From UHGV virus genome UHGV-1358930: a stretch of 64,000 nt of DNA; one strand, written 5' to 3'. The position numbers and the translations under genes were made by a program. This DNA comes from a virus. Under the pieces are notes generated by a model, which did not search any database, was not told the DNA's origin, and saw only the letters and a program-made list of their open reading frames with translations. Of the stretch, positions 10,500 to 64,000 are shown piece after piece; positions within the stretch are counted from its first letter, which is position 1, and each line of letters begins with the position of its first letter.

Positions 10500-11740
10500 C
10501 TCCCGTATCAATTGATGAAATTCTGAAATATTGAAATATTTAATAAACTGAGTAATGTGTAGAATATTGTGAAAACTGAAAATATGAACCTTTGTTAATC
10601 TTACATGTAGAGGTATGTTTAAATCTACAAATATATTATATGAACTTAGTTAGCAGAAGTCAATGTAAATTAGCCAATTCATATCAAAATTTTTATTGAA
10701 ATCAGCAGATTTTCAGAATTTTGAAGTTTTACACAATTTGATCTAACTATAAAGCTAGATAGGAAATAACTATAACAAGCTGTTTGGCATATAGATATGT
10801 TATAGCGAGACTTGAATAGCACTATAAGATAAATAACACGAACTTATCGCAATATCCGAAATTTAGAAATATTGAAGATTTGTGTATGGATCATCTTAAA
10901 CATTGAAATCTACAAAATCTACAATATCTGAAATTTTGAGATATTGTAAATTTGAATACTTTAACATACGTATATTGAATGTGCTTAAAAGATTAAATTT
11001 TCGTAAATTATTTTATTTATAGTTAAAATTTATGATTTGTTAATAGTTATAAACAGTATAAAAGTGATCTATTATTATAAGTGTCACCGTCTAGGTATAT
11101 ATGTATTCAATATATCATATAGTAGATATGTAAGTATTATATATCAAGCACATATCAAAATACTATAGCAAACTAAGTTATATAGGTAATCCCTATATCA
11201 AGGTGTAATCTATATACAGTAATCCCTCACAGCGTAAGTTGAGCATAAACAATGAAATTGAGACATGTAGATATATTATCGCTATATATCTAAACAAATT
11301 GATATAGTATTGACATATAGAGAATCACGTGATATTATAGCAAAACTTCATGGTTATGAAACTTCTATGTAACAAAATCAGTCAGAAACCACCAAAATTT
11401 GAATATTTCAGAATATTGAAATTTCAATAATATGTAAATTTTACAATCTTTCAGAATCGTGAATATTTCAAAATATGAAAATTTCAACTTTCCGCTAAAA
11501 TCACCAGAATTTAGTAAAATTGAAAGAATATGAAAATTTGATGCCTTCAATCTTTCAGAATCTGGTCATTTGGCCGCTTTAATATTATTAAAGAAATTAA
11601 AGTAATTAAAGTTATAATGTTATTAAAGTTATTTTAAAGGAATTAGCCAATTAAAGTAAAAAAGAATTAAAGTAAAAACTCGCAAGCTCGTTTTTACTTT
11701 TTGGTTTGTAATCTGAGAACATAAATTCTGTCAGTAGATA
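10500..11740. repeat. AT-rich non-coding region with dispersed short direct repeats (gaaatattgaaatatt; tttcagaat; gaatatttca(g/a)aat; atgaaaatttcaa; >=6 copies of ATTAAAGT at 11590-11690)
   Basis: No credible ORFs; multiple repeated 8-15-mers; candidate early-promoter/origin/host-takeover region. Confidence 0.5.
11310..11338 (+). promoter_or_regulatory. Consensus sigma-A promoter TTGACA-17-TATTAT
   Basis: ttgaca(11310-15) + 17-nt spacer + tattat(11333-38). Confidence 0.55.
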
Positions 11741-12008
11741 CCTCTATGCTGAAACGCATTGACGTACTTTTATGCGATCATGCGAAACACATAGACGTGG
11801 GCGTGACCTAAACACTACAGTTGATACTGCACATGGTCGGTTCAAACTACGTAGTAGTTGAATTTTTGAGTAATTTGGTGGCGCTTGCGTTGAATATCTG
11901 TCTTCGTCTCGTGTATGCAACGCACGTATGAGTCTCATATGCAAAAAAAATATTCGCCAGCGCATTGGCAAATATCTGTTAGATTTCAAAAATTTATAAA
12001 ATTCGGGG

Positions 12009-12037
12009 TTGACTTTTTGAAGCAGATACCTTATACT
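12009..12037 (+). promoter_or_regulatory. Near-consensus sigma-A promoter TTGACT-17-TATACT
   Basis: ttgact(12009-14) + 17 nt + tatact(12032-37). Confidence 0.55.
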
Positions 12038-12039
12038 AT

Positions 12040-12490
12040 GGGTGTAGGTTCACCTAACAAGTTAAAACTCAGTTGAGCGTAGCACCTCGACTACTTACTA
12101 CTTCTGCTAGGCAGCTTCATGATAGAGTCAGCGCAAGATCGTCGAAGCAGGTAACTTGTTAGAAACCGAATCGTTAATGTACTTAGCAAACCGCCACCAG
12201 GTAACTCCTATCGAGCTTGAAATTGAATAATCTCAAGATTGGTCAACAAAATCTTCTTTCAGAAGAGGCGCCAGTTTTGTACTCATCTTCTACTCACTTT
12301 TCGATAGGGGTGCTGGTAGTTGCTAAGCTATCAGTTTAGGTTTGCTAAAGTAGAAATAATCATCTACGTGAATTAGCCGGTATCTAGAGGTCGCTACTCG
12401 ACGGTACGACGTTGTAGCATGCGTAGAAGCTGCAGCTGATGTGATGAGTGCAAAACTGACGCCTTTCTTTTGTTTATTTAGTAGTTCGGA
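12040..12490 (+). ncRNA. Candidate structured non-coding RNA: ~450 nt GC-richer ORF-less segment immediately downstream of a strong promoter
   Basis: No ORF >=60 aa on + strand; local GC clearly above flanks; contains AATCGTTAATGTA motif copy (12169). Confidence 0.25.
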
Positions 12491-12504
12491 GGGCTAAAGC
12501 ATAC

Positions 12505-15191: not shown

Positions 15192-15768
15192 TTGTATATA
15201 TACACCATATTGTACATACAAACAATGCGACTTAGCTTGTCCTAATAGAGCTGAAGTGAATTGTTGGTTCAAACGATGCCGACTTGATATGTCAAATAAT
15301 TGCTTGCATACTAATATCCGAAATATTGAGAAAGCCGAGGATCTACTAAGTAACAAGTATGGAGAAACTGTGTGGTTTCCCACAGATAATCCTTCAGATG
15401 CAAGCGACACTATTTGCTACGTAGCTATTTGCAAATATGGTAAAGGTACTGCTCTTGGAAACGGAATATACAATCTGGATTTTGCAAAATTTATAGATAT
15501 GATCAAGGAGTCCTGGAATACGCATTTTGAAACAGATAACTTAATTCAGATGCGTGTGTGGTCTTTGTCTGCAAATTACCTAGTTATCTCAAATCTAGAT
15601 TATGTTAGATTTCAAGATTTTGAAAGTCAAACGTTGCTAAGGCTTCTGAATGATCGAAGAGATTATACAAAGACAACTGTAGTAGTTACTAGTAAAGAAC
15701 CTTTGGTCGGCAGCGGAAATTTCTTTCCTAGATTGACTTCTTTGCTAAAGGGGGTCAAGAGCAATTGA
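15184..15768 (+). CDS. Hypothetical protein (194 aa), possibly replication-associated
   Basis: Immediately precedes dnaB with overlap. Confidence 0.4.
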   Translation: MHDCIYTPYCTYKQCDLACPNRAEVNCWFKRCRLDMSNNCLHTNIRNIEKAEDLLSNKYGETVWFPTDNPSDASDTICYVAICKYGKGTALGNGIYNLDFAKFIDMIKESWNTHFETDNLIQMRVWSLSANYLVISNLDYVRFQDFESQTLLRLLNDRRDYTKTTVVVTSKEPLVGSGNFFPRLTSLLKGVKSN

Positions 15769-18188
15769 CGAATTCAGTAGAACTTCAAGTTATTTGTAAA
15801 ATTTTAACAAGTCAAGATGATTCTGAAATTGATAGGCTGTGTGCGTTTGATGAATCCTATTACGCAGTATTCAAAGATCAGATCAAATTTATTCTAGATC
15901 ATAGAGAAAAATATCATACTGTCCCAGACTTGTTTACGTTCCAAGCTCAATTCGAAGACATTGTTTTGATTGATGTAAACGAATCTGCAGATTTTTTAGT
16001 AGACGGACTTCGGAAAAACAAGCAGCAGATCATACTCTTACAAACATTCAATAAGCTATCTGAGTTAGGTTCTGCAGACGTTTCTGAAGCTTGGCAGTTC
16101 TTACAATCCCAATGCGACAAAGCTGCTCAACTTGATAATTCTAACCCGATGGATATCATCAAAGAAGCTCACAAGCGAAGTGATCAAGTTTTATCGCTAA
16201 GTAATCAAACAAGAATTCCTACAGGATTCAAAGAAGTAGATGAAACAATGTATGGAGGATTGTCAACTGTTGAAGAACTTTGTCTTGTAGTTGCTAGAAC
16301 TAACACAGGTAAAGCTCAGCCTCTTTGGAGTAATATCTTAACACCTACTGGGTGGAAGCGTATGCGAGATATTCAAGTAGGAGACATTGTATGCGGTAGA
16401 GATAATGACAATGGTAAAGTAGTTCAAATATTTCCGCAAGGTACAATTGACTACTATCGTGTAAAGTTTGATGATGGTACTTATACGGAGTGTTCTGCAG
16501 ATCATCTTTGGGAAGTTCTGGATAGTGAACGAAGGAAGCATGATAGAAAAACTTATGGTCAGTATCTTACATTGACTACTCGAGATATTCGGAATCATAT
16601 GTATCGCAGATACTCTGTTGATATGTGTGAACAAATTGAATTCGAGAGTGCTTTTGATACAGATAGTGAACTTGACGGATATTTTTTAGGAGCATTTATC
16701 GGGCATGGTAGAAATGTAGGTAACAAGCTATATATTCATTCTCTGTCCGATGTTTCAAAGCGACGTATAATTGATGCATTGTCTAAATATCGTTGTCAAT
16801 TCACAGAAAATGATCCAAATACACTCGTGATTGAGGATAAGAATGATGGTAAGCTTATCCAAAAGATGTTCGAGTACAACTTGATGAACTGCAAAGTCAT
16901 TGATAGACATATTCCGGATATATATTTTCATAGCCCTGTAAATGTTAGAAAAGCTCTGTTATCAGGTCTCTGCGATACAGATAGCACAATGTTATCAAAA
17001 AATCATAGAGGTTGGGTTTTCGTTACATCTTCAGATCAGCTTAAATCTGATTTTGTTTACATTGCTAGATCTTTAGGTGTAAAAGCAAAGGTGTCGACTG
17101 CAAGATCTGGTAGATGGGTTGACTTAGGTGTATCGCACGTTGCGAATACGTACCACAGGGTTATGTGTATCTCAAAATTCAATCCGTTTTATGGTTCACC
17201 AAATTACACAGAATTTGAACGCAGACAGGATAAAACTAAATTTAAAAATCGCAAGCGTGTTTGCAAATTCATTGATTCTATTGAATACGTAGGTAAGACG
17301 GAATGCCAGTGTATCATGGTAGACAATAAGACGCATACATATATTACAGATGATTTTATTGTCACACATAACACCTGGGTTACTACTAAGATGATGGAGT
17401 CTGCACAAGCGAATGGATTTCCTGTACTATATTATAGCCCAGAGATGCAATCTGCTTTCATTGGCACACGATTTGATACCTGGAGAGGTCACTTCCGAAA
17501 TAGCGATATTCAACGAGGTAAATACAGCGAAGACTACATTCAGTACATCAAAGACATTGTTAAAGAGGAAACTGGTGCATTTGTTGCAGAAGACAAAGAT
17601 ATGCCAGGAGGAAAAACAACTGTCAGGTCGATTGAAACTCTAGTCAAGCGACATCATATAAAGCTTGTTATCATTGATGGTCTGTCTTATATGGCAGATA
17701 CAGAAAAGTCTGATAGCGATGTTATTAAGTATAAAAATATATGTACTGGACTATTCCGAATGTCTAAAACATATGGATGTGCTGTAGTAGTATCTGTACA
17801 AGCTAATAGAGACACTAAATCTAATGTCGATGACAAAGGAGTCCCGTGGCCTGATATGTATTCGATTGAAGGCTCAGACCATCCAGGACGTATTGCAACT
17901 CAAGTATTTGCGCTTCGACAATTGTACGAAGAGCATACATTAGAGATAAAGCTGTTGAAGACTAGAAATGCAAAGAATGCAAATCCTACGTTCGCATATG
18001 TATGGGATCCAAATACAGGAAACACAGAGTTTGTTTCGGATGATGCATCGGCTGCTCCTCCTTCTGCTCCTGCACAGCCTAGCAAGTTCTCAACGCCGAC
18101 AGTGTCAGCAAAGATTGTACACACCGATATAGATGATAATCTAATCGATGCCAGTACAGATGACGATCTAGATGACGTTGAGTTTTGA
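15765..18188 (+). CDS. dnaB: DnaB-family replicative helicase interrupted by an intein in the Walker A (P-loop)
   Basis: N-extein ends 'ARTNTGK', C-extein resumes 'TWVTTK' reconstructing GxxxxGKT; downstream RecA-like fold motifs. Confidence 0.75.
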   Translation: MTNSVELQVICKILTSQDDSEIDRLCAFDESYYAVFKDQIKFILDHREKYHTVPDLFTFQAQFEDIVLIDVNESADFLVDGLRKNKQQIILLQTFNKLSELGSADVSEAWQFLQSQCDKAAQLDNSNPMDIIKEAHKRSDQVLSLSNQTRIPTGFKEVDETMYGGLSTVEELCLVVARTNTGKAQPLWSNILTPTGWKRMRDIQVGDIVCGRDNDNGKVVQIFPQGTIDYYRVKFDDGTYTECSADHLWEVLDSERRKHDRKTYGQYLTLTTRDIRNHMYRRYSVDMCEQIEFESAFDTDSELDGYFLGAFIGHGRNVGNKLYIHSLSDVSKRRIIDALSKYRCQFTENDPNTLVIEDKNDGKLIQKMFEYNLMNCKVIDRHIPDIYFHSPVNVRKALLSGLCDTDSTMLSKNHRGWVFVTSSDQLKSDFVYIARSLGVKAKVSTARSGRWVDLGVSHVANTYHRVMCISKFNPFYGSPNYTEFERRQDKTKFKNRKRVCKFIDSIEYVGKTECQCIMVDNKTHTYITDDFIVTHNTWVTTKMMESAQANGFPVLYYSPEMQSAFIGTRFDTWRGHFRNSDIQRGKYSEDYIQYIKDIVKEETGAFVAEDKDMPGGKTTVRSIETLVKRHHIKLVIIDGLSYMADTEKSDSDVIKYKNICTGLFRMSKTYGCAVVVSVQANRDTKSNVDDKGVPWPDMYSIEGSDHPGRIATQVFALRQLYEEHTLEIKLLKTRNAKNANPTFAYVWDPNTGNTEFVSDDASAAPPSAPAQPSKFSTPTVSAKIVHTDIDDNLIDASTDDDLDDVEF
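16314..17372 (+). mobile_element. DnaB intein (~353 aa), class-3-like (N-terminal Ala, Thr+1), with LAGLIDADG homing endonuclease motifs (LDGYFLGAFIGHG; KALLSGLCDTDS)
   Basis: Begins 'AQPLWSN' right after GK, ends 'FIVTHN|T'; block F Cys 'ECQCIMVD'. Confidence 0.65.
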
Positions 18189-18194
18189 TATACT

Positions 18195-18226
18195 CCCGCC
18201 GAATCAATATTCGGCGGGTTTGCTTT
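18195..18226 (+). terminator. Rho-independent terminator after dnaB (cccgccgaa...ttcggcggg + TTTGCTTT)
   Basis: 9-bp GC-rich perfect stem + T-run. Confidence 0.7.
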
Positions 18227-18262
18227 GGTGCGATCGTTAGATAAACTAAGAAGGGAGTTAAC

Positions 18263-18420
18263 ATCACACCAGATTTGAAAATAAACATTAAATACCTTTA
18301 TTTTCTTAATCTGTTCCTCTTTCAACGACCTTGCTTGACAAGTCAAGTCTTACTAGATCTCCAGAGGCGTTAATTTCCGCTTGTGCAGCGGTATTTGTTA
18401 TTTTTAGGAGAAAGCTATTC
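18263..18420 (-). ncRNA. Putative TnpB omega-RNA (reRNA) scaffold at tnpB 3' end/right end of element
   Basis: Conserved (>90% identical) in second copy at 63718-63880 while flanks diverge; position matches known omega-RNA location. Confidence 0.4.
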
Positions 18421-19540
18421 TCAAGCCCTCGTTCAATATATTCTTTGATGCATTGATATCTCTATCATGTGTTGTTTGACAATTAGGACAAGTCCAATTT
18501 CTAACTTCAAGATTTTTGACTTCTGGATTTTTGAATCCGCAACAGCTACAAGTTTGAGAAGACGGAAAGAAGGCGTCTATTTTGACAAGTTGTTTTCCAT
18601 ACCAGCTGCACTTGTAAGTCAATAGTTCAACGAATTTTGACCAGCTTGCGTCTGAAATTGCTCTTGCTAGTTTATGATTCTTGACCATATTTTTGACTTT
18701 CAAGTCTTCAACACAGATTATGTCGTGGTTTTTGACAAATTCTGTTGACAGCTTGTGCAAGAAATCATTTCGTTGATTTGAAACTTTCTCAAATTGTTTA
18801 GCAAGTCTGATTCTTGATTTGTTTCTGTTATTAGATCCTTTTTGCTTCTTCGAGAGCTGTCTTTGAAGTCTTCTTAACTTCTTAGTAGACTTTGAAAGGT
18901 ATTTCGGATTTTTGATCTTTTCACCGTCTGAAGTTATTGCGAAATCTTTGATGCCGAGGTCAATTCCTACAACAGATCCAGTTTTGTCAAACTCTTCAAT
19001 TTCAACATCTTTGCAACAGATACTTGCAAAATATTTTCCTGAAGCTGTTTTTGAGATGGTTGCCGAAAGCGGAGTTCCTTTGACATTTAAATTTCCTTTG
19101 AATTTAACCCATTTCAATTTAGGCAAGAAGATCTTGTTATCTAAACAATGAAATTGTGCAGGTGTGGAGTATGTAGCCTTATATGACTGTCTACTTGAAA
19201 GTTTCTTCTTAAATTTAGGATAACCTGGTTGCTTTCCATTCTTTACGTTTCTAAAGAAGTTTTGATACGCAGTATCAAGATCTCTAAGAGACGATTGCAA
19301 AGCCATTGCTTCAGGTTCTTTCAACCATGAATATTCGTCAAGCTTCTTGAGCTTTGTTAAATCTGCAGAATTTTGATTATATGTATTTGACTTTCTTGCC
19401 TCTTCATAATCTTTGATGGATTTAGCAAGATAGTAGTTGTAGACAAATCTGCAGCAGCCAAAGGTTTTTGCAATTTGCTCAATCTGCTGCTTGTTCGGAT
19501 ATATCCGTATTTTATAAGCTTTCAGAATCATTTTGGTCAT
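18404..19540 (-). CDS. tnpB: TnpB (OrfB) RNA-guided nuclease-like transposase accessory protein, IS605/IS607 family
   Basis: '[11 protein letters not shown]...FGCCRFVYN' N-term; C-terminal Zn finger 'CSCCGF...[18 protein letters not shown]'. Confidence 0.8.
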
Positions 19541-20132
19541 CTGAAAGTGCCTCCTTGATTTTAGCTACGCTTCTCTTAGAATACATTTTCATTGAGTAAC
19601 AGTGCAGTAAACTTACGATTTCTTCAAAAATTTCTTCAGAATCAAGTTTTTCGGATCCTAGTTGGGACGCAACAACTATCTCTGTTCCAAATTTTCTAAA
19701 AAGATGATAAAATAGATCAAATCCTACTCTAGACAGTCTGTCTTTATAATTGATAACTACTTTCTCAACTTTATATTCCAATACATCGTCTAATAGTTCA
19801 AAAAACTGTTTTCTGTTTTCAAAAGAAATTCCGGAAGCAACCTCTTGAAAAACACCATCGACTTGAATTCCGGAATTCATGCAAAAACTGTTCAAAGATT
19901 CAAGTTGGTTCGCTAGATCCGATTTTTGAGATATTGTAGAAACTCTAGCGTAGATATAATTTTTTCTTGTTTGACCGTTATTTAATATAGAGTAGACGTC
20001 TTTATCATGATAGATGCGCTTACCTGTAGGTGTTAAGTCATAATGAATGAGTCCTCTTTTGCAATAATGACCAAGTGTTGGCTGTGAAATATTCAATAGT
20101 TGTAACACTTGTTTAGCTTTCATATTGATCAC
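19512..20132 (-). CDS. tnpA: IS607-type serine recombinase TnpA (MerR-like HTH + resolvase catalytic domain)
   Basis: '[17 protein letters not shown]' HTH then '[14 protein letters not shown]' catalytic Ser motif. Confidence 0.75.
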
Positions 20133-20184
20133 CTCAAAATAATTTAAGGTTAAAAAATAATATCATCTTAATATAAAAAAGGAA

Positions 20185-21192
20185 ATGCTATATATGAATA
20201 TTGATACCATAATTGATAAACTTTCATCTCAAGGGTTTATACGCCTAAATAGGCATATAGGCGACTACTATAGCTGCTATTGCCCATTTCACAGTGATGG
20301 AAAAGAGAAAAAGCCGTCCTCTGGTATATTGCTAAGAGACCAGTATCGCAATGGACAGCACTATCCTGCTGGATTCTTTAACTGTTTCACTTGTCACCAT
20401 GCATATCAACTGGAAGAGTTCATCACAGAGCTATTGAAAGTTAATTCTATCCACATGTCTGGTAGAGATTGGCTCATCAAGAATGATCCAGATTATGATC
20501 CAGATACAGAATTTGAATATCTCTTACCTAGAGATATGATGCAGTCTGTCGTGAATTCTTTTGCATTAAAGCAGATATCTAGTAAGTCGGGAGTTCAAAA
20601 ACCTTCATTCATATCTGAGTCAGAACTTTCTAAGTATAGATACACAGTACAGTATATGTATGACCGAAAACTTACAGACACTGTGATCGACTTATTTGAC
20701 GTAGGGTTTGATGCTAATTTCGTTCCAGCAGGAAGAAAGAAATCAGTTCCATGCGTCACATTCCCGGTAAGAGATGTCCACGGAAATACGCTGTTCATCT
20801 GCAGACGATCGATTGAAGGAAAATCATTCTATCTACCGTCAAACATAGAAAAATCTGTATATGGGCTGTATGAATTACCTCAAGGATGTAAATCTGTTAT
20901 CATCGCGGAAAGCTGCTTCAATGTTCTAACTTCTTACGTTTACGGTGTACCTGCTGTAGGTCTACTAGGTACTGGTACTCCTCATCAGATTTCTCAGCTT
21001 AGAAGTTTAGGTGTAAATGAGTTTGTATTAGGATTAGATCCAGATGAAGCAGGAGATAGAGCTTGCAAGCGATTGAAACGAGCACTCGGCGATATTGCTA
21101 TTATCCGACGCATGAATGGAATACCTGAAGGAAAAGATATAAATGACCTCACCAAGTCTGAATTTTTAGACATATACAGAAGTAGAATGTGA
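20185..21192 (+). CDS. DNA primase (DnaG-like, CHC2 Zn finger + TOPRIM)
   Basis: 'CYCPFHSDGKEKKPS' Zn ribbon; TOPRIM 'IIAESCFN...LGLDPDEAGDRA'. Confidence 0.7.
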   Translation: MLYMNIDTIIDKLSSQGFIRLNRHIGDYYSCYCPFHSDGKEKKPSSGILLRDQYRNGQHYPAGFFNCFTCHHAYQLEEFITELLKVNSIHMSGRDWLIKNDPDYDPDTEFEYLLPRDMMQSVVNSFALKQISSKSGVQKPSFISESELSKYRYTVQYMYDRKLTDTVIDLFDVGFDANFVPAGRKKSVPCVTFPVRDVHGNTLFICRRSIEGKSFYLPSNIEKSVYGLYELPQGCKSVIIAESCFNVLTSYVYGVPAVGLLGTGTPHQISQLRSLGVNEFVLGLDPDEAGDRACKRLKRALGDIAIIRRMNGIPEGKDINDLTKSEFLDIYRSRM

Positions 21193-25096: not shown

Positions 25097-26365
25097 TTGA
25101 GTTTATTTACCAAGTCACAAATGGCGAAATTCAATGAAGTTGCCGAACGAAGCAAACAGCTTAACAAAGAAAAACCAAAGTCTGTAAATGTATCTACAGT
25201 AAATGCGGAATTGAAGTCGATGTCAGATTCTGTGCTAGAATACTTCAAAGACTCCCCTGCTATCTGCATTCGAACCGCTGATCAGCTACATGAATACATT
25301 GATAAATGTATCGAAGCTGGATACGCTGGTATAGATACAGAAACAACGGGACTAGACAGACAAAGAGATTACATTGTAGGCGCGTCTTTATATTATCCGG
25401 ATGGTACAGAATGTTATATTCCGATGAAACATAAGATCCCTATTTTCGAAACTCCTTACAAAAATCAACTGTCTTATGAAGAAGTAACTAAAGAATTCAA
25501 ACGACTAGAAAACAGCAACATACGACTCATTTTTGCAAATGCTGACTTCGACTTAGCAATGATCTACAAGGATCTAAAAGTTGATTTCAACGATAGATTC
25601 TATTATGATGTTATTCTTGCATGGCGTTGTTTGAAGGAGAATGAGTTACACAATGACTTGAAATTCCTTTACAATAAATATGTATTGAAAGGAAAAGGAG
25701 ATCCTAAACGTTTTAGCGATTTCTTTTCTGTAAAGCTGTTCCCATATTCTGATCCTGAAATCGCTAAATTGTACGCAGCAAACGACGCAAAAATCACATT
25801 TCAACTGTTCAAGTGGCAGCTTCCTTATGTTACAGAAAGTCATCCTAAGTGTCAGAAAGCTCACCTAGAAGCAATATCTAGACTCATTTGGAACATAGAG
25901 TTTCCACTGGTTAAAGTCTGCCAGAATATGTATAGAAGAGGTTCATACATTGATTCTAATGTTGCTAGTGTTTTGAAAAAGCGATACAGAGATGAATACA
26001 ATGTAGAAGTCAAAAAGCTACAAGACATGGTACAAAAAATCATTGATAATACGAATATAGCATATTCAGGTAAACGTCCATTTACTAGAGGAGCAGATTT
26101 CAACCCATCTTCACCTCCTCAAGTTAAATATTTGATATACAATCTACTTCAAATTCCTAAAGGATCGTCTTCTGGAACAGGTAAAGAAGTATTGAACGAA
26201 CTTAATCTGCCTGTAACAAATCAGATACTGAAGGTAAGATCTCTATCTGTACTTATCAATACATTCGTAGAGAAGCTACCAGCTGCCGCAAGTCTGGATC
26301 ATAGAATTCATGGTCAGTTCAAGCAGGTGGGTGCAGCCACGGGCAGGTTGTCTTGTGCCGAGCCT
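25097..26365 (+). CDS. polA: DNA polymerase I (family A) exon 1: 3'-5' exonuclease domain and N-terminal polymerase part, ends '...TGRLSCAEP'
   Basis: Exo I 'GIDTETTGLD'; '..ATGRLSCAEP' = TGRLSSxxP motif; ORF then runs into intron. Confidence 0.75.
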
Positions 26366-27271
26366 AAACATGATAAATCAGATTGGGCTCGTAAAATCGA
26401 GTTAATTCAGGGAAGGGTAGCAGCTTGACGCTGTGAGATAACCCTGAGCCAAGGCTCTCATATATCTACTTAGGAGGTACACGATATGAGAAAGATTCAA
26501 TTCAATGAAGAGACCATCAATGCAATTAAAAATTTTATAGAGTCTGGTCACACAATGGAAGAGACATGTAACAGATTTACGCTCAAATACGATACATTGA
26601 AACGTGTAATGTTTGAGAACAATCTGAAGCCGTATAGAGCAGATAAATCACATCCCGTTATCTTCACTAGAGATGAGGAAAACATCGTATGTAAGCTATA
26701 TTCGACAACTTCAATGACAATGAAAGATATCTGTAAAGAAGTGAAGCTACCTGATTACGCTGTGCAGAAAATACTATCGGATAATTTTTCTGAAAAATAC
26801 AGAAATGAAAGGAAAGCAAAGCTTTATAGATTGTCCAAACGGTGCGAGAATAGTCCGTGGTTTCAGAAATACGGAGCAGACTCTTCTCAGTGGGTCGGAG
26901 GCGTTGTAGACGATGGCAACGGATATGATATGATCAAAAAACCTGAGTGGTACACAGGTAGAAAGTGTTCTGATTATGTCTTTTTACATACAGTTGTGAT
27001 GTGTGAGCACTTAGGTCTAACTGAACTTCCTAAAGGATATGTAGTACATCATATCGACGGAAACAAGAAAAATAACACAATAGATAATTTAGCGTTGATG
27101 ACCGTGTCAGGACACAGTAAGTTACATTTGTTGATGAAGAATCTATGCAAGGTGCAGAGACTATCCGAACAGGAGTAAGCGAAAGCTGAAATGCTAGACA
27201 ATGGTTGTGTATGACATCTATCATTCCTACTAGTTATACAAGCCATCGAAGATATAGTCCACAAATAATTG
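26366..27271 (+). mobile_element. Group I intron 1 in polA carrying an HNH homing endonuclease ORF
   Basis: Exon ends in U, intron ends in G; canonical S element AAGATATAGTCC at 27249-27260; exon 2 resumes 'NLMNIP'. Confidence 0.65.
26486..27178 (+). CDS. Intron-encoded HNH homing endonuclease (I-HmuI-like)
   Basis: 'GYVVHHIDGNKKNNTIDNLALMTVSGHSKLH' HNH motif; SD AGGAGG. Confidence 0.75.
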   Translation: MRKIQFNEETINAIKNFIESGHTMEETCNRFTLKYDTLKRVMFENNLKPYRADKSHPVIFTRDEENIVCKLYSTTSMTMKDICKEVKLPDYAVQKILSDNFSEKYRNERKAKLYRLSKRCENSPWFQKYGADSSQWVGGVVDDGNGYDMIKKPEWYTGRKCSDYVFLHTVVMCEHLGLTELPKGYVVHHIDGNKKNNTIDNLALMTVSGHSKLHLLMKNLCKVQRLSEQE

Positions 27272-28911: not shown

Positions 28912-29936
28912 GGTGAACGTAAAAGTTATGCCCCATATTTCAAGTTCTCGCATTAAATTTGCTTGAAATATGAAAATCTTGTGAACTACATTGCTCATAG
29001 GTGTTGAGAACACGATTAGGATATACAGGAAATGGTATATAGGTTCTCAGCTAACTGGGGATACTCAAAAGAGTGAATCCAGTGCCAAGCATCAAGTCTT
29101 CACGGAGTTCTATACCTTACATCATATCGGAGGTGTAGAACTTGAACAATTATTCATCATACATCATAACTTGTAAGGACAATGGAATGCAATACATCGG
29201 AATAACTTCTATTGGTTTAAGAAATAGGTGGTATGCACATGTTTCATGTTCTCGAAATTTAAGTAGTAATAATCCAATGTATAAGGATATGAAAGAATTT
29301 GGAGAATCCTCTTTTGAAATACATGAAATTGAATCTGGGTTATCAAAAGAAGAAGCCGATGCGCGTGAAAAGGAACTAATAAAGATTTATAATACAAAGT
29401 GGCCTAACGGATACAACTTAACAGACGGTGGATTCAAGAATGATGGACAGTTATTACCAGAAGGTCGATCGGCTAGAATATCTTGTAAGCTACGCGGAGT
29501 TCCTAAATCAAGCGAGCATAGATTGCATCTAAGTCAGTCTAGGATTGGAAAATACAAAGGAGCAGACAACGCCTTCTATGGTAAACATCATTCTGATGAA
29601 ACTATATTGAATCTTCAGAAGCTATTATCCCACGGAAAGGTTTATCAGTTAGACAAAAAATCTAAATTAGTTGTAGGCACATTTGATAGCGCAGCGTTTG
29701 CAGCAAGATACATATCTGAAAACAAATTATCTTCTGCAAAAATAGATACTATAAATGCTAGATTATGCGAAGTTATGAACAATGATAATCGTTCCGCATA
29801 CGGTTTTATGTGGAGACGCGATGAAGGTCAATCGACTAAGTATTAGAAGAGAAAATAGAGCTACTCTTCGAAGCGCAAGACATTAAGCGAGATAATGATG
29901 ATATAGTCAGCGCCACAAGTGATTGTGGACTAAGTG
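28912..29936 (+). mobile_element. Group I intron 3 in polA (splits motif B) carrying a second GIY-YIG endonuclease ORF
   Basis: Exon 2b ends ..GGT (U), intron ends ..AAGTG (G); S-like GATATAGTCAG at ~29900. Confidence 0.55.
29142..29846 (+). CDS. Intron-encoded GIY-YIG homing endonuclease (second copy, paralog of 27710)
   Basis: 'YIITCKDNGMQYIGITSIGLRNRWYAH' GIY-YIG; C-terminal region similar to 27710 ORF. Confidence 0.75.
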   Translation: MNNYSSYIITCKDNGMQYIGITSIGLRNRWYAHVSCSRNLSSNNPMYKDMKEFGESSFEIHEIESGLSKEEADAREKELIKIYNTKWPNGYNLTDGGFKNDGQLLPEGRSARISCKLRGVPKSSEHRLHLSQSRIGKYKGADNAFYGKHHSDETILNLQKLLSHGKVYQLDKKSKLVVGTFDSAAFAARYISENKLSSAKIDTINARLCEVMNNDNRSAYGFMWRRDEGQSTKY

Positions 29937-31433
29937 GTACTTTACGGACGTTCTATTCCTTCAATTGCTGATCAGTTATATGGCAAACGAGACGATATGA
30001 CAGGTGAGCAGAAACTAAAAGCAGCTCAGAAGGTGTTTGACGCAGTTATGGGAGCTTTTCCTGGACTGAAAAATCTAATGATCGGGTCTCAAGATTTTGC
30101 AAGAAAGCACGGATATACGGAAACAATTTTAGGTAGAAGACGACATATTCCAGATATGCAGCTGCCTGAATTTGAATTTAAGGCGATGAAAGGATATGTT
30201 AATCCTGATATTGACCCGACAGATATCACTACGCTGGAAAACAAAGATGAGATCCCCGAAAGAATTGTAAACGAGCTTTACAAAGAATTTAAAACGTACA
30301 AATACTACGGTCAAATCGCAAAGCGTACAAAGCAGCTATATGAAGAAGATCATATTAGGGTGATAAATAATAGACCTAAGATAAATGATGCAACTCGTCA
30401 GTGTGTTAACTGTGTTGACTTCGATACTGAGATACTAACAACAGACGGATTCAAAAGATATGACGAGGTATCTATAGGCTACACGATTATTTCATATAAC
30501 TTAGCTAAAGACTGCTTAGAGGAAGATGCCATTGAAGGTATTCATATCGATGATAGAGATGTTAAGGGATATGAATTCAATGCGCCGGAGCTATCTTGCG
30601 TATGCACAGATAATCACAGATGGGTTATTCAAGATACTCTGTATGAACACCCTGAAATCGTGACAGCTGAAGAATACGTCTGTGATTATGGTTGTCTATT
30701 CCCGATTTTAGCATCCGCTGGATCTGAATTACCTGGATCGTTTGGAGAATATTCTCAAGCAGAGTTCGGTGTATTAGCATATCTACTTTACTACAATGCA
30801 ATCAGGTTAATTGAAAACGGTACTACGTGGCTAACATTCAAGTGGAATAGCCCTAATCAGAAATCGTTTGATTCACTTATTCAGTTTCTTCGTAGCACAA
30901 AGTTTGATTATCAGATAAGTAGCACAGGTGATCCAGTATGCACAGAAGTAAAGATTGCATACAATACATTTTTATTCGATGTGTATACTAGCCTCAAGGG
31001 CAACAAACTAACCAATGAGTTTGTAAGCTTATTATCCGGTGAGCAAGCTTCTCAGCTTTGGTGGACATTTGCATACCTGAAAAATCCGGATTTAAAGCTA
31101 GATGAGAATATTTCAATTGTTTTTGACAGCTTGTCTGACGCAGATGTATTTCAGCATCTCTGCTATCGAGCAGGACATTTTAGCAGATGCATTCCGCTAA
31201 AGGATATGATTGATGCGGTAGATGAGCCACACATTGAAGACAGAATTCAGGAGCCTTCTAACAATCAATATGTAGTTACTACATATCAGCATAACACTGT
31301 CAATATGTGGGACAAGCGATATGTAAAACGAACAACATTACACGGCTGCTGGTGCGTAACTACTAACAACGGAACATGGGTTGCTAGACGAAATGGTTCT
31401 GTATTTCTCACAGGCAACTCTATTATTCAGGGT
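29937..31433 (+). CDS. polA: polA exon 3 ('VLYGRSIPSIADQLYGK...' motif B continuation, fingers/palm) containing an intein; ends 'NSIIQG'
   Basis: 'RRHIPDM' like PolA 'GRRRYVPD'; 'TRQCVN|..|SIIQG' = ERMAFNMPVQG motif. Confidence 0.65.
30412..31418 (+). mobile_element. Intein (~335 aa) in polA between '...RQCVN' and 'SIIQG' (coordinates +/- 2 nt)
   Basis: Starts 'CVDFDTEILTTDG' (block A), block B 'CTDNHRW', ends 'VFLTGN|S'; removal restores N(S)IIQG(S)AAE motif. Confidence 0.6.
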
Positions 31434-31791
31434 AGATACTTGCTGCCCTTATCTATCTAACCTTATTGCTCAAGGGTGTGCTCATATATTTGAGTGCTAA
31501 CGGTATCAGTGACATAAGACTGCTTCACGAAGCGAGAGAGATGTGAAGCTCTTCTACTAGTAGAAGATCCATAGACGAATCAGCTGACTAAGAAAGCCTA
31601 AGGTCTAATTATTCAATTAGATAGCTGGTAATACCGTGTCAAGTGCACCTTATACAGGGTGTAAAGATGTATCGACTAGCTCGCGTTGTTGCGAGGGTAG
31701 GTCTGAAGACGAGCTGCAGACTGAAATGGTAGACTGCAATTATTTTGCAGAAGATATAGTCAGGTTGTATGGAAACATGCATTGCTGCACG
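31434..31791 (+). mobile_element. Group I intron 4 in polA, ORF-less (~358 nt), splitting 'QG|SAAE'
   Basis: GC-richer structured segment; S element AAGATATAGTCAGG at 31751-64; exon ends in U, intron ends in G. Confidence 0.55.
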
Positions 31792-50936: not shown

Positions 50937-51530
50937 GTGATATATCTATACGACAAATCTATATGCGATGATCTAAGGCGATCATTCAATCCTAATAATA
51001 TGCCGAATCCCGTTGTTAAGGTTGTTGACACCTCAGACTTCTTGTCTATAGGAGCTCAAGTAAAAGACGATAAGCTTTCTTTTCCTATAGTAGGGTTGAA
51101 TCGACCGGATAACTATGAAATAGATACAGATCGTACAAATTTTACTTTGATGCATTCAGGGTGTGTAGTCGCTTTTGATGATAAAGAAAACAATCTATAC
51201 AATGAACAGGTTATTCCAATAAAACAAAATTATGATCTACATGTACTTGCAACCAATCAAGCCGATATGGACGAAATACTTCGAGAGCTGATATTCAAGT
51301 ACACTAACATGTATTTCTTGACTATAAAACTTCCATATGAAGTGAATAGGAAGATTCGTTTTGGTCTAGTGATTGATGGGCAGGTAGAACGAACGTCTGG
51401 ATATTCACAATATGCCGAATCGGGTACATTATATGAATCGGTGATTCCACTGCGAACAGAAGGACTTGTGCTAGTTAACTACAAGCCAATACGTCTAACT
51501 AGAAATGAGTATCAAATAGAGTTCAATTAA
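50937..51530 (+). CDS. Hypothetical structural-module protein
   Basis: ORF. Confidence 0.4.
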   Translation: MIYLYDKSICDDLRRSFNPNNMPNPVVKVVDTSDFLSIGAQVKDDKLSFPIVGLNRPDNYEIDTDRTNFTLMHSGCVVAFDDKENNLYNEQVIPIKQNYDLHVLATNQADMDEILRELIFKYTNMYFLTIKLPYEVNRKIRFGLVIDGQVERTSGYSQYAESGTLYESVIPLRTEGLVLVNYKPIRLTRNEYQIEFN

Positions 51531-51542
51531 GTGTAGCAAGTA

Positions 51543-51582
51543 AACGAAGACGCACATTGTGATGCGTCTTCGTTGTTTTATT
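51543..51582 (+). terminator. Rho-independent terminator (aacgaagacgca...tgcgtcttcgtt + TGTTTTATT)
   Basis: 12-bp perfect stem + T-run. Confidence 0.7.
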
Positions 51583-51637
51583 GAACTGCTATAACAGAAC
51601 CTGAACCTTGTATACTTCTAGAAAGAGGTGAATACTG

Positions 51638-51904
51638 TTGATATATTATAAGAATACATCATCTAGATCACTTACATTTTACAATGTAACTTTTGGTCCA
51701 GGGGACATCAAACCTGTTCCGGATTACATAAATAGATCATGCATGATTAGATGCGATGAACCCAAGCAAACTTCTCCTAAGCCTAAGGCCGCAGCTGAAA
51801 AGCATGCATCTACAAAATCATCTGCCGTAGTAGATGTAAAGTTCAAATCTGATAAACAAATTGAGCAAGGAGGAAATGCTAATGGCTCAGATAAATATTT
51901 CTGA
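51638..51904 (+). CDS. Hypothetical small protein (TTG start)
   Basis: ORF. Confidence 0.3.
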   Translation: MIYYKNTSSRSLTFYNVTFGPGDIKPVPDYINRSCMIRCDEPKQTSPKPKAAAEKHASTKSSAVVDVKFKSDKQIEQGGNANGSDKYF

Positions 51905-53750
51905 AATTAGTCAAAATTATAGCTATAACATTGGTACAAACACATACTGCTGTGTAGCAATGCCTATTACAGCGTGTTGGGGACCTGGGTACGTTGATCC
52001 AACGTCAGCAGGAATTACTGAAGACGAACTCATGGATGAGCTACGCTGGGAGAGATTCAACGCAACTCAGCAAGGTCTAGAAAGCTTTGTATCTACTTAC
52101 AGAGGCCCTGCGTCACTGTATAGATCTGCGAAAGATTATTCATATCAAATGGCAATGACGCTTCTTACTGCTGGATATGACGTACTTATCTGTCGTGTGT
52201 GCCCGGGTACATCTGCTCAAGGCGAGCTTAAAATTCAGGACGAGAACAAGCTCACTATCAAGGCCAAGTACGCTGGCACGTTTGGTAACAATCTTCGTTG
52301 CACATTCAAAAAGCTCAACTCTATATTCCTAGTAGATGGAAAAGCGCAGAGAGTGAACTATTGGAACTGCATTGTATATGTGCTAGATTCTTCTGGTACA
52401 AAGACAGCAGTTGAGAATCTAAGCTTTGTATTTGAGTCTAGGAATTCTAACGACTCACTATATCATATTTCTGAAATTGACTCTAATTTCATTACATTTG
52501 CCGGATACGATGAACTCAAAGATTCATTGACACTTGACGGATCTGTATCTATCGACCTTGCAAACGGTTCAGACGTTGCTAACCCTAAAACCGCACAAGA
52601 AATGATTACAGCTGCAACAGAGTTAGCAAAAACTCGTTATAGCAAAGTATATACCGATATAAGTAATGTTTCTTATCTGACAAAGCTGTCTAGCTTGAAC
52701 ATTTCTGATATAAATAAAGCTGCTGCTATTCAATATAGAGAATGGTGCTGTACTGCAGCATATTCCGTATTTGAAAAGCTCAAGGATAAGTTGTCATACA
52801 ACTACAATAGAGTAATTGTTCCAGGTTGGGATGATCAGGATTTCTCCGCTGTAGTACCTGATTACGTATACAATGATGTAGATACAAACTTCGTGCTATC
52901 TCCTCTCCATATCCGATTGATGGATGTCGCATACAACAGCCGTTGTGGCACCGCATACATTGATATCCCGAAGAGTCTTCCTAGATCTCGTGTATGGAAC
53001 GAAGACGATAGTAAGGAAGGATATGCACAGAAGCTCGCTAGATATGTACCTACAAACAACGCATACGACCTAAACGCAAGCTTGTATACTTCACATTCTG
53101 CTTTATTTGCTCCTTGGGGACATTATACATATGTCGGAACTTCCAAGCAGAACGTCGCATCTCCTTCGTTCATGGCTTTGATGATTGAAAGAGCAATGAT
53201 TCTAAATCAGGCAAGCCAGTATGAATGGGCACTACCTACAACAAGAAAACATACACTTAAGATCGGCAAGCTCGATTATAGCGTAACAAAGCATCTGCTT
53301 GATGACTGGCAGGGTGAAGAAGGCGTAGGTGTAAACGTAATCACAGATATTCCAGATATGGGTATGAGTCTGTGGGGAAATAGCACATTGTTCGAAGTTC
53401 CTGTTGGAACCTATCAAGCTCTTGCAAATCTATCAACTCGTAAGCTAATGAACGCTGTTGAAGATCAGGCATACAGATGCGGAATTAACATCACATTCCA
53501 GTACAACAACGAGCAAGCATATAGTAGTTTCTACGCTGGTATGACCCCACTGCTGGACACAATGAAAAATATCGGTGCTATCAACGACTACTACATGGTC
53601 ATGTCAGCTGATATCAACGGCACCGATAGGGTGCGCTTGAATAGTATTCTAGGTACTCTGTATTTAACAGTTTCAGGCGTGGTAAACACGATCAACTTGG
53701 ATCTTATCGCACTTCCTAGTACGGTGAATCTAGACGACTACAGGGCATAA
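51861..53750 (+). CDS. Putative virion structural protein, tail-sheath-like (629 aa)
   Basis: Size; N-terminal 'NIGTNTY..ACWGPGYVDP' loosely resembles sheath N-termini (T4 gp18 'GTAALAGKFQWGPAFQI'); followed by terminator. Confidence 0.3.
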   Translation: MSKEEMLMAQINISEISQNYSYNIGTNTYCCVAMPITACWGPGYVDPTSAGITEDELMDELRWERFNATQQGLESFVSTYRGPASLYRSAKDYSYQMAMTLLTAGYDVLICRVCPGTSAQGELKIQDENKLTIKAKYAGTFGNNLRCTFKKLNSIFLVDGKAQRVNYWNCIVYVLDSSGTKTAVENLSFVFESRNSNDSLYHISEIDSNFITFAGYDELKDSLTLDGSVSIDLANGSDVANPKTAQEMITAATELAKTRYSKVYTDISNVSYLTKLSSLNISDINKAAAIQYREWCCTAAYSVFEKLKDKLSYNYNRVIVPGWDDQDFSAVVPDYVYNDVDTNFVLSPLHIRLMDVAYNSRCGTAYIDIPKSLPRSRVWNEDDSKEGYAQKLARYVPTNNAYDLNASLYTSHSALFAPWGHYTYVGTSKQNVASPSFMALMIERAMILNQASQYEWALPTTRKHTLKIGKLDYSVTKHLLDDWQGEEGVGVNVITDIPDMGMSLWGNSTLFEVPVGTYQALANLSTRKLMNAVEDQAYRCGINITFQYNNEQAYSSFYAGMTPLLDTMKNIGAINDYYMVMSADINGTDRVRLNSILGTLYLTVSGVVNTINLDLIALPSTVNLDDYRA

Positions 53751-53806: not shown

Positions 53807-53822
53807 TTGAGGTAATATATTG

Positions 53823-55958
53823 ATGTCAACTAAGATATGTAAGATATGCGGTAAATCATTTGAGTCTAAGTCATCTAGACGTTCTGTTTGCTATGAGGAT
53901 CATTATCATCCTTGTCCTGTTTGTGGTAAACTAACTATAGGAAATGATATGCAACATTTGAATTCTTGCTGCTCAATCGAGTGTTCTAGGAAGAAAGCGT
54001 CTGATACTACGCATGAAACATACGATGAATGGCCTTCCAATTCTAGTAGTGCGAAGCAAAAGAGAGCAGAAACTAATGTGCAGAAATATGGAGTCGATAA
54101 TCCTTCTAAGCTACCTGATGTGAAATCGCAGATATCTAGTAGTTTGAAAGCTACGTGGCAAACTCAAAAAGATAACATACTATCCAAAACTGAACAAACT
54201 TGCTTAGACAAGTACGGTCAAACACACTACATGAAATCTGATGAAGGCAAACAACACGTATCTGATGTATTTACTGAAAAGTATGGAGTTAAAACCAGCT
54301 TGCTGTCCGATATTGTGAGAGATAAGATAGAGAAAACCAACCTGGAAAAATATGGATCTGCGAATCCACTTTCATCTGCAGATATACGAGACAAAGTAAA
54401 GCAGACCAATATGCTTCGATACGGATATCAATACTCTGCTAGTTCACCAGAAATTAGAGAAAAGATGAAATCTACTATGGTGAAACGATACGGTGTGAAA
54501 TATCCGCTTCAGTCTGATGTGATATTGAAACGTGCCAAGGAAACATTCTCAAGTCATATGGAGTCAGAATCGTTTAGGCAGCAGAGGCAAGAGAATACAG
54601 AAGCTACTAACATGGCTCGATATGGGACTAAATCTGCAATGTCGAACATCGAAATTCAAGCACGCATTCAGTTCACTAATTTATCTCGATATGGTGTAGC
54701 AAGCTATACAGCTTCTGACGATTTCAAACAAAAACGCCTGAAAACTTTCAAGATAAAATATGGATCAGATAATCCGATGAAGTCTGAAGCAGTCAAACAA
54801 CGATTATCGGAAACGATGAAATCTAGATACGGTGTTCAACATGCAAGTCAACTGAACATGCCTGATATATCTAAAATTGACGAGTTGATTAAGTTTAGGT
54901 CAGATCCTGCTCAATACATATCTTCATTACCCGAAAGCGAAAGAACAGAATCAATCATAGCTGATAAACTTGGTGTCACTTCAAGCGCTGTTTCTAACTA
55001 TGTTGTACAAGATAATCTCCATCATCTAGTAAGTTATAGCAAAAGCACCGTGGAAGATGAAGTTGCTAATTTTTTGAGTCAGAACAATGTCAGTTTCCTT
55101 CGTAACTGTAGATCTGTCATATCTCCGTATGAACTCGATTTTTATTTACCTGATAGACAGTTAGCTATTGAATGCAATCCGACGGTAACGCATAACTCTT
55201 CATTTCATGATCCGTGGAATGGCAATGCGAAATCCCCTTCATACCACAAAATGAAAACAGATATGTGCGAGAATGACGGCATATTTCTATTTCATATTTT
55301 TGGCTATGAATGGACGTATAGAAAAAATATAATATTATCTATGTTGTCTTCCTTACTACATAGATCCAGTCGAAAAATCTACGCCAGAAACACATATGTG
55401 GCTGAAATTGATCCAGCAGAATGCGCTGAATTTTTAGAATCTAATCATAGACAAGGCGGAAGATTGTCAGCAAGTATTCGATTAGGACTGAGATCTAAGG
55501 ACACCAATGAGTTAGTATCTGTAATGACATTCAACAAAATTAGAAATACTATCGGATATACAGGTCAAGCAGGTGTAGAACTATCTAGATTCTGTTCTTC
55601 ACTCAACACGTCAGTTGTAGGAGGAGCCAGTAAGCTTTTTACACATTATCTGAACAACATACATTCCGATGAATTAGGTAAAATTATTTCGTTTTCTGAT
55701 AGAGCACATACACGAGGTAACTTATATTCAAAGTTAGGATTTGTACCTGTTAATGTATCAAATCCAGGATACGTCTGGGTAAGTATGGTAGATGATTCAT
55801 ATTACAATAGAGTATCTTGTCAGAAACGTAATTTACAGAAGCTGTTTAACGATACTCGTATAGACGTTGATAATCAAACAGAACGTCAGATAATGGAATC
55901 TCATGGCTATGCTCAGGTGTTTGATTCTGGAACAATCAGATGGGAATACCTTAACTGA
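53823..55958 (+). CDS. Modular protein A: N-terminal Cys-rich Zn-ribbon, ~9 tandem NUMOD3-like 'RYG..P..S.E(V/I)..K...T' repeats, Vsr/DUF559-like PD-(D/E)xK domain, C-terminal GNAT-like domain
   Basis: 'CKICGK...CPVCGK...CCSIEC'; repeats KYGVDNPSKLPDVKSQ..; 'LDFYLPDRQLAIECNPTVTHN'; 'VVGGASKLF...LYSKLGFV'. Confidence 0.55.
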   Translation: MSTKICKICGKSFESKSSRRSVCYEDHYHPCPVCGKLTIGNDMQHLNSCCSIECSRKKASDTTHETYDEWPSNSSSAKQKRAETNVQKYGVDNPSKLPDVKSQISSSLKATWQTQKDNILSKTEQTCLDKYGQTHYMKSDEGKQHVSDVFTEKYGVKTSLLSDIVRDKIEKTNLEKYGSANPLSSADIRDKVKQTNMLRYGYQYSASSPEIREKMKSTMVKRYGVKYPLQSDVILKRAKETFSSHMESESFRQQRQENTEATNMARYGTKSAMSNIEIQARIQFTNLSRYGVASYTASDDFKQKRLKTFKIKYGSDNPMKSEAVKQRLSETMKSRYGVQHASQLNMPDISKIDELIKFRSDPAQYISSLPESERTESIIADKLGVTSSAVSNYVVQDNLHHLVSYSKSTVEDEVANFLSQNNVSFLRNCRSVISPYELDFYLPDRQLAIECNPTVTHNSSFHDPWNGNAKSPSYHKMKTDMCENDGIFLFHIFGYEWTYRKNIILSMLSSLLHRSSRKIYARNTYVAEIDPAECAEFLESNHRQGGRLSASIRLGLRSKDTNELVSVMTFNKIRNTIGYTGQAGVELSRFCSSLNTSVVGGASKLFTHYLNNIHSDELGKIISFSDRAHTRGNLYSKLGFVPVNVSNPGYVWVSMVDDSYYNRVSCQKRNLQKLFNDTRIDVDNQTERQIMESHGYAQVFDSGTIRWEYLN

Positions 55959-58609: not shown

Positions 58610-58646
58610 AGAGCAGGCAACGATTGTCTGCTCTGTTTTGCTGTTT
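58610..58646. terminator. Bidirectional terminator between convergent genes (agagcag...ctgctct + GTTTTGCTGTTT)
   Basis: 7-bp stem, T-rich 3'. Confidence 0.5.
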
Positions 58647-63636: not shown

Positions 63637-63717
63637 ATTTGAGACTCGTTATTATTGTTGCAACAAAAATCAAAGCTCATCAAATTTAGGAGGTCATACA
63701 ATGTCTTAGATCAATAT

Positions 63718-64000
63718 CAATCACGTCAGATTTGAAAATAAATATTAAATATATTTATTTTCTTAACCTGTTCCTCTTTCAACGACCTTGCTTGACAAGT
63801 CAAGTCTTACTAGGTCTCCAGAGGCGTTAATTTCCACTTGTGCAGCGGTATTTGTTATTTTTTTTTAGGCAAAAGCTATTCTCAAGCCTTCGTTCAATAT
63901 ATTCGTTGCTGCATTGATATCTCTATCATGTTTTGTTTGACAATTAGGACAAGTCCAATTTCTGACTTCAAGATTTTTGACTTCTGGATTTTTGAATCCA
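63718..64000 (-). mobile_element. Second copy of the TnpB-element right end (tnpB 3' part + omega-RNA region), truncated by window end
   Basis: ~90% identical to 18263..18545 over ~280 nt. Confidence 0.65.
63865..64000 (-). CDS. tnpB: tnpB (partial, C-terminal Zn-finger region; continues beyond window)
   Basis: Collinear with 18404.. region of copy 1. Confidence 0.6.

Follow-up and report, generated by a model that had tools for sequence, protein, structure and literature searches.

An IS607-family element with an ISDra2-like TnpB, very probably an autonomous insertion sequence, in an uncultured human-gut phage

Between dnaB (15765-18188, plus strand) and the primase gene of the virus genome UHGV-1358930, of which a stretch of 64,000 nt was analyzed (hereafter, the window), lie two overlapping open reading frames (ORFs) that are read from the minus strand. 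This raises the question of which kind of element has entered a phage replication module, how it moves, and how the gene next to it endures the insertion. The first-pass annotation of this DNA had proposed an IS607-family element on the strand opposite to dnaB and primase, and the protein evidence given below upheld that proposal. As a whole, the region is best explained, with high confidence, as an autonomous IS607-family insertion sequence in an uncultured human-gut phage, equipped with an ISDra2-like TnpB and an omega RNA. Alignment with other copies and with the empty allele of the related phage L006 placed the element at 18263-20195 on the minus strand, with a length of 1931 bp plus one ambiguous AT.

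The first gene, tnpA (19512-20132, minus strand), encodes a small serine recombinase. The ORF opens at GTG 20132, and the start is likely to be ATG 20123, which is preceded by GAGGTG and gives a protein of 203 aa. The Pfam Resolvase domain was found at residues 59-195 and a weak N-terminal MerR-type helix-turn-helix (HTH) at 7-41, with the catalytic serine within an ARVS motif, and the protein passed the NCBIfam IS607 transposase model transpos_IS607 (NF033518) with 173.6 bits against a cut-off of 110. In agreement, its matches in the PDB were the catalytic domains of the IS607-family TnpAs from ISC1926 and IS1535, with the active-site serine conserved. The second gene, tnpB (18404-19540, minus strand), lies downstream with a 29-nt overlap and encodes an RNA-guided nuclease of 378 aa with three Pfam domains (HTH_OrfB_IS605, OrfB_IS605, and Cas12f1-like_TNB). 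The closest solved TnpB was that of ISDra2 (8h1j, 8exa), aligned over residues 7-374 with an E value of 3e-111. The RuvC triad was intact, with D in GIDLG, E in CVEDL, and D in HDRD, and so was the CxxC...CxxC zinc finger. Within the IS607-family element proposed before, TnpB itself passed the NCBIfam IS200_TnpB model (IS200/IS605, ISDra2-like; 514 bits, cut-off 425) and fell short of the IS607_TnpB model (208 bits, cut-off 350). Neither a Y1 HUH transposase nor the hairpin ends of IS200/IS605 elements were found, the only other ORF of the element being the serine recombinase. Searches of the window with Rfam at gathering scores, and of 18100-20300 up to an E value of 10, gave no match and no group I intron, and an IStron identity was therefore rejected. 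Of 85 inverted pairs, the 25 longest included no terminal inverted repeat, and just a 7-nt subterminal motif was seen. This motif, TTAACCT, lies at 20147-20153 (minus strand), 41-47 nt inside the left end, and its complement at 18306-18312, 42-48 nt inside the right end, reads AGATTAA here and AGGTTAA in other copies. It is kept in both left-end types described below, at mirror-image distances of about 41-48 nt from the ends, pairs with the Shine-Dalgarno sequence of tnpA in the leader fold, and is tentatively taken as a TnpA-binding site or a leader element. Promoter-like matches in the locus were not commoner than in shuffled sequence, and no promoter is therefore claimed.

Next, the ends were defined from the copies. 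The right end, ...TTTTCAAATCTG(A/G)(C/T)GTGAT, fell at window position 18263, where the first-pass annotation had also put it. The left end, AT(A/G)TA(T/C)AG(C/T)ATTTCC..., was placed at 20195-20193 by five other copies and the empty site, so that the 20175 proposed before had to be moved to 20193, about 20 nt further. A second left-end type, ATGGATTAAA(C/T)(C/T)TCC..., accompanies a TnpA that is 78% identical. The comparison of ends that had been suggested thus gave exact termini, an AT core, and a TTCAT flank that is a putative target-adjacent motif (TAM), and the suggested search for empty sites in related phages returned four occupied/empty pairs, including one at the dnaB-primase junction. 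The empty state of this site in relatives marks the element as recently mobile. The dnaB terminator, a hairpin with a T-run (18195-18228, plus strand; hairpin at 18195-18218), had correctly been described as flanking the element; because the empty allele carries it too (in L006 and L007), it is phage sequence and lies outside the element.

Three of the pairs are exact and are given here on the element strand, with a slash at the point of insertion and the element in parentheses. At site A, the empty allele of L006, whose primase is 99% identical, reads CAATATTCAT/ATTAACTCC, and the occupied allele, window copy 1, reads CAATATTCAT (ATATAGC...GGTGTGAT) GTTAACTCC. At site B, the empty allele is in the window itself, between 51821 and 51822, as CTACAAAATCAT/CTGCCGTAG, and L001, with L010 at the same site, is occupied as CTACAAAATCAT (AGATAAC...GATGTGAT) CTGCCGTAG; the flanks of the L001 element align without gaps to window positions 51523-51821 and 51822-52121. 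At site C, L090 is empty, TTTGTTTTTCAT/TCACTCC, and L002 is occupied, TTTGTTTTCCAT (GTATAG...GATGTGAT) TCACTCC. The use of L002 as a clean empty allele for an L090 insertion was rejected, the region being diverged. In the three pairs, every insertion added just the element and a single AT, nothing else being duplicated, in the form flank-TTC-AT-(element...GTG-AT)-flank. This indicates that the crossover dinucleotide is AT and not GG, and such junctions would be the expected remnant of a serine-recombinase crossover at AT. In the window, the two dinucleotides are at 18263-18264 (right end) and 20194-20195 (left end), and all copies carried AT at both junctions, where the studied IS607 elements have GG. 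A 2026 review describes the family as integrating at GG, with most members ending in GG; because it says "most", the AT core is a variant trait and no ground to exclude the element from the family. The empty target of site B (51817-51841, plus strand) reads ATCAT followed by CTGCCGTAGTAGATGTAAAG, matches the guide exactly, and is occupied in L001 and L010 by a derivative without tnpA, so that the window phage carries this element family and could also receive it.

The fourth pair comes from a second copy (63720-64000, minus strand), which is cut by the window end, so that only its right end, its omega-RNA region, and the final 44 codons of its tnpB are visible. The first-pass annotation had listed a repeat at 63718-64000 with about 90% identity; the repeat is real, with a measured start at 63720 and 93.2% identity over 280 nt (18263-18538 against 63720-63999). 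It spans the last 44 tnpB codons (63868-63999), which share 91% identity with those of copy 1, and extends some 140 nt past the gene. As had been claimed, there are at least two copies with differing flanks: the homology breaks off sharply at ATCAC (18263 and 63720), the right-end boundary, and the flanks beyond are unrelated. Empty alleles of this site were found in L104/L105 (CTCAT, flank with one mismatch) and in L002 (TTCAT, three mismatches).

How the neighbouring gene endures the insertion is suggested by the flank motif. TTCAT is the complement of ATGAA, and antisense insertions therefore land on start codons. At copy 1, the motif occupies 20194-20198 on the minus strand as a putative TAM and TnpA target, reads ATGAA, the first primase codons, on the plus strand, and the crossover dinucleotide is the AT of the primase ATG (20194-20196). 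The native primase Shine-Dalgarno sequence, GGGAG (18253-18257, plus strand), has been moved 1.9 kb away from the start codon; in the empty allele the sequence is AAGAAAGGAGTTAATATGAAT, and in L006 GGAG sits 5 nt before the primase ATG. In the window, the element abuts the primase ATG and contains the Shine-Dalgarno region of the gene, an outward-facing AAAGGAAAT in the left end (20178-20186, plus strand), 10 nt before the ATG at 20194. This sequence probably keeps the primase translated, as a ribosome-binding site donated by the element. Antisense insertion on a gene start codon was seen at five of the ten sites with a visible left junction (window, L002, L091, L104, and L112), and all five had a Shine-Dalgarno-like sequence from the left end. 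The gene calls that begin at the junction were a DUF6948 gene in L002, a 65-aa gene in L104, a 229-aa gene in L112, and a clamp-loader subunit gene in L091, the last with the other left-end type and AGGAGG 8 nt upstream. Predicted gene starts make up about 3% of the TCAT sites in the window, and the binomial tail was of the order of 1e-5 to 1e-6 for five of ten start-codon sites, and 2e-7 for six of ten.

The conserved non-coding tail downstream of tnpB had been named as the place of an omega-RNA scaffold, and folding and covariation bore this out. The minus strand of 18263-18420 folded better than 200 of 200 shuffles (z -3.27), and the predicted scaffold comprises the helices P1 (18377-18391), P2, and P3, followed by a terminal hairpin rich in AT and a GUGUGAU tail. 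TnpB-only relatives from IMG/VR (47-60% protein identity) share sequence blocks 3' of tnpB, and 21 of them formed the covariation alignment, with slid partners and 500 shuffles as controls. Three helices were kept, with compensatory changes in 11 of the 14 shared pairs; 98.6% of cells were paired, against 35-40% when partners were slid, and the covariation score was 0.80, against 0.07-0.17 for the slid controls, a value reached by none of the 500 shuffles. This is as expected for an omega RNA, whose predicted scaffold overlaps the right end of the element as well as the 3' end of tnpB. In the window lineage, the terminal hairpin is long, AT-rich, and closed by CAGRUU/AAUCUG, and the 3' tail is RYGUGAU, with GUUCAA or UGUCAA in the TnpB-only relatives; Rfam had no family for this RNA. 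The guide is predicted to begin directly after GAU. Its templates would be GTTAACTCCCTTCTTAGTTT for copy 1 (18243-18262, minus strand), which is phage sequence just past the right end, and TGATATTGATCTAAGACATT for copy 2 (63700-63719, minus strand), so that the guide positions proposed before were correct within 2 nt.

The left flank read (T/A/C)(T/C)CAT at ten of ten occupied junctions, and in all empty alleles TCAT immediately preceded the stretch that, once the site is occupied, lies past the right end. Counted together, 11 sites showed (T)TCAT, with an invariant C at position -3, in a genome of 36% G+C. The TAM of ISDra2 TnpB is TTGAT, one base away from TTCAT. In CboIStron, one motif (TGGG) is both the target of TnpA and the TAM of TnpB, and by this analogy TTCAT is likely to be the TAM here. 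The occupied alleles of L002 (9343-9347) and L004 read TCCAT where the empty L090 (8551-8555) reads TTCAT, a change that also turns Lys2 of the flanking gene into Glu; this may be chance or relief from re-cutting.

Movement of the element can be pictured on the model of TnpA excision and TnpB homing published for IS607 (bioRxiv 10.1101/2023.11.20.567912; PMC10711439). TnpA would excise the element as a circle, with the donor resealed, and would insert the circle by a crossover at the AT within TTCAT. The last ~16-20 nt of the omega RNA would be transcribed from the flank past the right end, and the RNA loaded in TnpB would direct the cutting of alleles where TTCAT directly abuts the former right flank. 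Such an allele is an empty site, carried by a sister genome or by a co-infecting relative. Recombinational repair would then recopy the element into the cut allele. We infer these steps, from excision through cutting to recopying, from the IS607 and TnpB literature, and on this analogy RNA-guided homing between co-infecting phages is plausible. If the targets are co-infecting genomes, the element would act by homing and might even serve as a weapon. TnpB homing in phages is named as a theoretical possibility in a recent review, and our literature search found no experimental study of TnpB homing or competition between phages. A more far-reaching reading is that this is a phage-adapted IS607 homing lineage, near cost-free for its host, which cuts the empty TTCAT alleles of relatives, rebuilds the start codon, and donates a ribosome-binding site; we put it forward tentatively, as a possibility that is rather doubtful in its full form.

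Several points weigh against parts of the account given so far. Survivorship in a gene-dense genome surely contributes to the start-codon excess, four insertions are in sense orientation, the left-end variant of L113 has no Shine-Dalgarno-like motif, and copy 2 interrupts a 48-aa ORF (MSWISINEQ...) at codon 7, an ORF that is intact in L002 (16956-17113). With regard to homing, the sequence next to TTCAT in the empty allele of L006 has two mismatches to the copy-1 guide (positions 1 and 10), because of which it may escape cutting. Any insertion will, by construction, yield a guide that matches its empty site. The two copies in the window are just 93% identical and are therefore not a recent duplication. 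Between copy 1 and L006, 8 differences were counted in the last 76 nt, against a background of 3%, but this stretch is intergenic and no co-conversion tract stands out around copy 1. Finally, the ends of the omega RNA, the TAM, and cleavage are all predictions. As a separate observation, the remnant of the interrupted ORF (window 63679-63719) also carries a TGG to TAG change at codon 3.

It is quite possible, though short of probable, that the Shine-Dalgarno-like tract of the left end is incidental, or serves tnpA regulation or TnpA binding, and that the start-codon excess consists of tolerated insertions only. The L113 variant, the four sense insertions, and the small ORF disrupted by copy 2 speak for this, and the TnpA family with 65% identity to that of the window has no such tract; moreover, the purine tract of type-1 left ends is a weak match to the consensus (AAGGA). 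However, two unrelated left ends (TATAGTATTTCC... and GGATTAAACCTCC...) both put a Shine-Dalgarno complement 8-10 nt from the junction, and essential genes, namely primase and clamp loader, start at junctions with no other ribosome-binding site. A role in tnpA regulation is also at odds with the leader folds, which do not pair the tract with the tnpA Shine-Dalgarno sequence: it is the AACCUU motif that pairs with it, with insignificant z-scores, and a fold-back of the left-end pyrimidine tract onto this sequence was ruled out.

As for TnpB, the element could instead move by TnpA alone, with TTCAT as the recombinase target and with TnpB and its RNA at most restoring excised copies on sister genomes, an account that we consider possible but on the unlikely side. 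Since the TnpA target and the TAM coincide in CboIStron, the flank motif by itself cannot split a TnpA preference from a TnpB requirement, and, with the guide match holding by construction, the conserved TTCAT could be TnpA target choice alone. The lack of a clear co-conversion signature and the two guide mismatches in the L006 allele point the same way. What speaks for a part of TnpB is that copies which lack tnpA, but whose tnpB and right end are intact, have been maintained at conserved sites in several phages: the copies of L001 and L010 have no tnpA and retain tnpB, the right end, and some 30 nt of left-end sequence, and those of L093-L102 are 5'-truncated, with tnpA lost and tnpB and the right end kept. 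Such derivatives fit a TnpA-independent persistence, and the catalytic residues of TnpB and the RNA structure are under constraint.

It is very unlikely that TnpB is a domesticated non-cutting regulator of the TldR kind, or that the element is a decaying relic; phage TnpB derivatives with regulatory roles are known from the literature, but the RuvC triad and zinc finger are intact here, an intact TnpA stands alongside, and the sites are polymorphic between occupied and empty. That the repeated 280 nt are a genome terminal repeat or a recombination hotspot with no transposon involved, as the position of copy 2 at the window edge with its end alone visible might suggest, can be dismissed almost entirely, refuted by the tnpB 3' codons within the repeat, the exact stop of homology at the right-end boundary, the recurrence of the right end beside at least ten other flanks in related phages, and the empty alleles of the copy 2 site.

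The insertion sequence was then placed among its relatives. A near-identity DNA search of INPHARED phages with the locus and the window edge gave no match, and the portal of this phage is just 22% identical to that of any isolate phage. Exact-pattern scans of IMG/VR with the copy-2 junction and the right-end core gave no match either, nor did an exact-protein look-up of the window TnpB return a record. TnpBs with 86-97% identity were found on metagenome contigs of 100-177 kb, mostly from human gut, and the same element occupied at least 11 genomic contexts of related phages, in both orientations, with some copies full (tnpA and tnpB). When a bacterial source was sought in GTDB genomes, the nearest TnpA was about 62% identical, in metagenome-assembled genomes of Clostridia (Ruminococcus, Lachnospiraceae), and in INPHARED phages the best TnpA identity was 48% at most. 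As far as the collections searched show, this lineage lives in phages. More distant relatives are common: 437 phage records carry TnpB relatives and 73 carry IS607-type TnpA relatives, including large virulent phages with an annotated IS607 transposase.

Some relatives were irregular or carried more than one lineage. In L004 (5353-7300) and L005, TnpB is 96% identical, the 3' half of the right end is replaced and ends in TTTAT, and the right flank does not continue the ORF broken at the left end, so this element looks recombinant or deletion-associated. One contig of 116 kb (L112/L118) holds two lineages, with TnpAs 97% and 65% identical to that of the window, and the L001 contig holds two TnpB lineages (P0002 and P0099), 96% and 62% identical. 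The elements of the 65%-identical TnpA family (L115, L118, and L119) differ in their left end and also in their flank, which reads TAT(A/T)(C/T).

Compared with known systems, the gene order agrees with IS607 of H. pylori, ISXfa1, and CboIStron of C. botulinum, where a serine TnpA with an N-terminal HTH is likewise followed by an overlapping tnpB. The studied IS607 elements also have no inverted repeats, make no target duplication, insert at a dinucleotide, and have an omega RNA across the right end and a TAM at the left flank. Unlike them, the window element has an AT core in TTCAT, rather than GG in TGGG or GGG, its TnpB fails the IS607_TnpB model, and it has no group I intron. ISDra2 has a similar TnpB with the catalytic residues kept and a flank motif that differs by one base (TTGAT), but its transposase is a Y1 HUH enzyme whereas that of the window is a serine recombinase, and the terminal hairpin of its omega RNA is replaced in the window by the long AT-rich one. 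The IS607/TnpB elements annotated in Campylobacter phage CP21, Microcystis phage LMM01, Lactobacillus phage 521B, and Clostridium phage c-st are of the same kind and also reside in large phages; the window lineage is absent from these records (no DNA match), and here the empty and occupied alleles fix the ends, the core, and the flank motif. Since associations of TnpB with serine recombinases are polyphyletic and TnpB and IS607 genes are common in phage records, the element is of a known kind. Its unusual traits are an AT core next to a TTCAT flank, the combination of an ISDra2-like TnpB with a serine recombinase, the natural set of occupied and empty alleles, and the insertions on start codons, where the element probably donates a ribosome-binding site. 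Phage IStrons, inteins, and homing endonucleases borne on introns likewise sit in essential genes without destroying them and can spread between co-infecting genomes; introns and inteins do so by RNA or protein splicing, whereas the window element would preserve the gene at translation initiation.

Other parts of the window were also noted. DnaB (15765-18188) is 807 aa long and includes an intein that bears a homing-endonuclease domain (Hom_end), and the DnaB of the relative L007 has 457 aa and no intein. The ORFs at 25097-26428 and 29934-31460, about 3.5 kb apart, both match DNA-polymerase families, and the polymerase looks split by inserted material; the relative L006 has a polymerase with an intein. 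Three large DUF7487 ORFs lie at 53820-55958, 58645-60303 (minus strand), and 61066-62817, one of which matches PHROG homing/HNH endonuclease families and one of which is fused to an N6-adenine methylase motif. The window genome is rich in selfish elements. A stretch at about 10500-12500 is AT-rich (GC 0.29), without long ORFs, and contains tandem repeats at 11402-11484 (43 nt x 1.9) and 11580-11675 (9- and 17-nt units); an origin or regulatory function is possible for this stretch.

TnpB, from which Cas12 descends, is a compact tool for genome editing, and to our knowledge its natural role has been demonstrated only in the chromosomes and plasmids of bacteria. With occupied and empty alleles at hand in closely related phages, homing between co-infecting phages becomes directly testable. 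An IS607 recombinase with an AT core, together with a TnpB whose probable TAM is TTCAT, could widen the targeting range. If insertion at start codons with a donated ribosome-binding site holds true, it would explain the survival of a transposon in a gene-dense phage replication module, and a homing lineage of this sort would represent a third route to phenotypic silence, after self-splicing introns and inteins.

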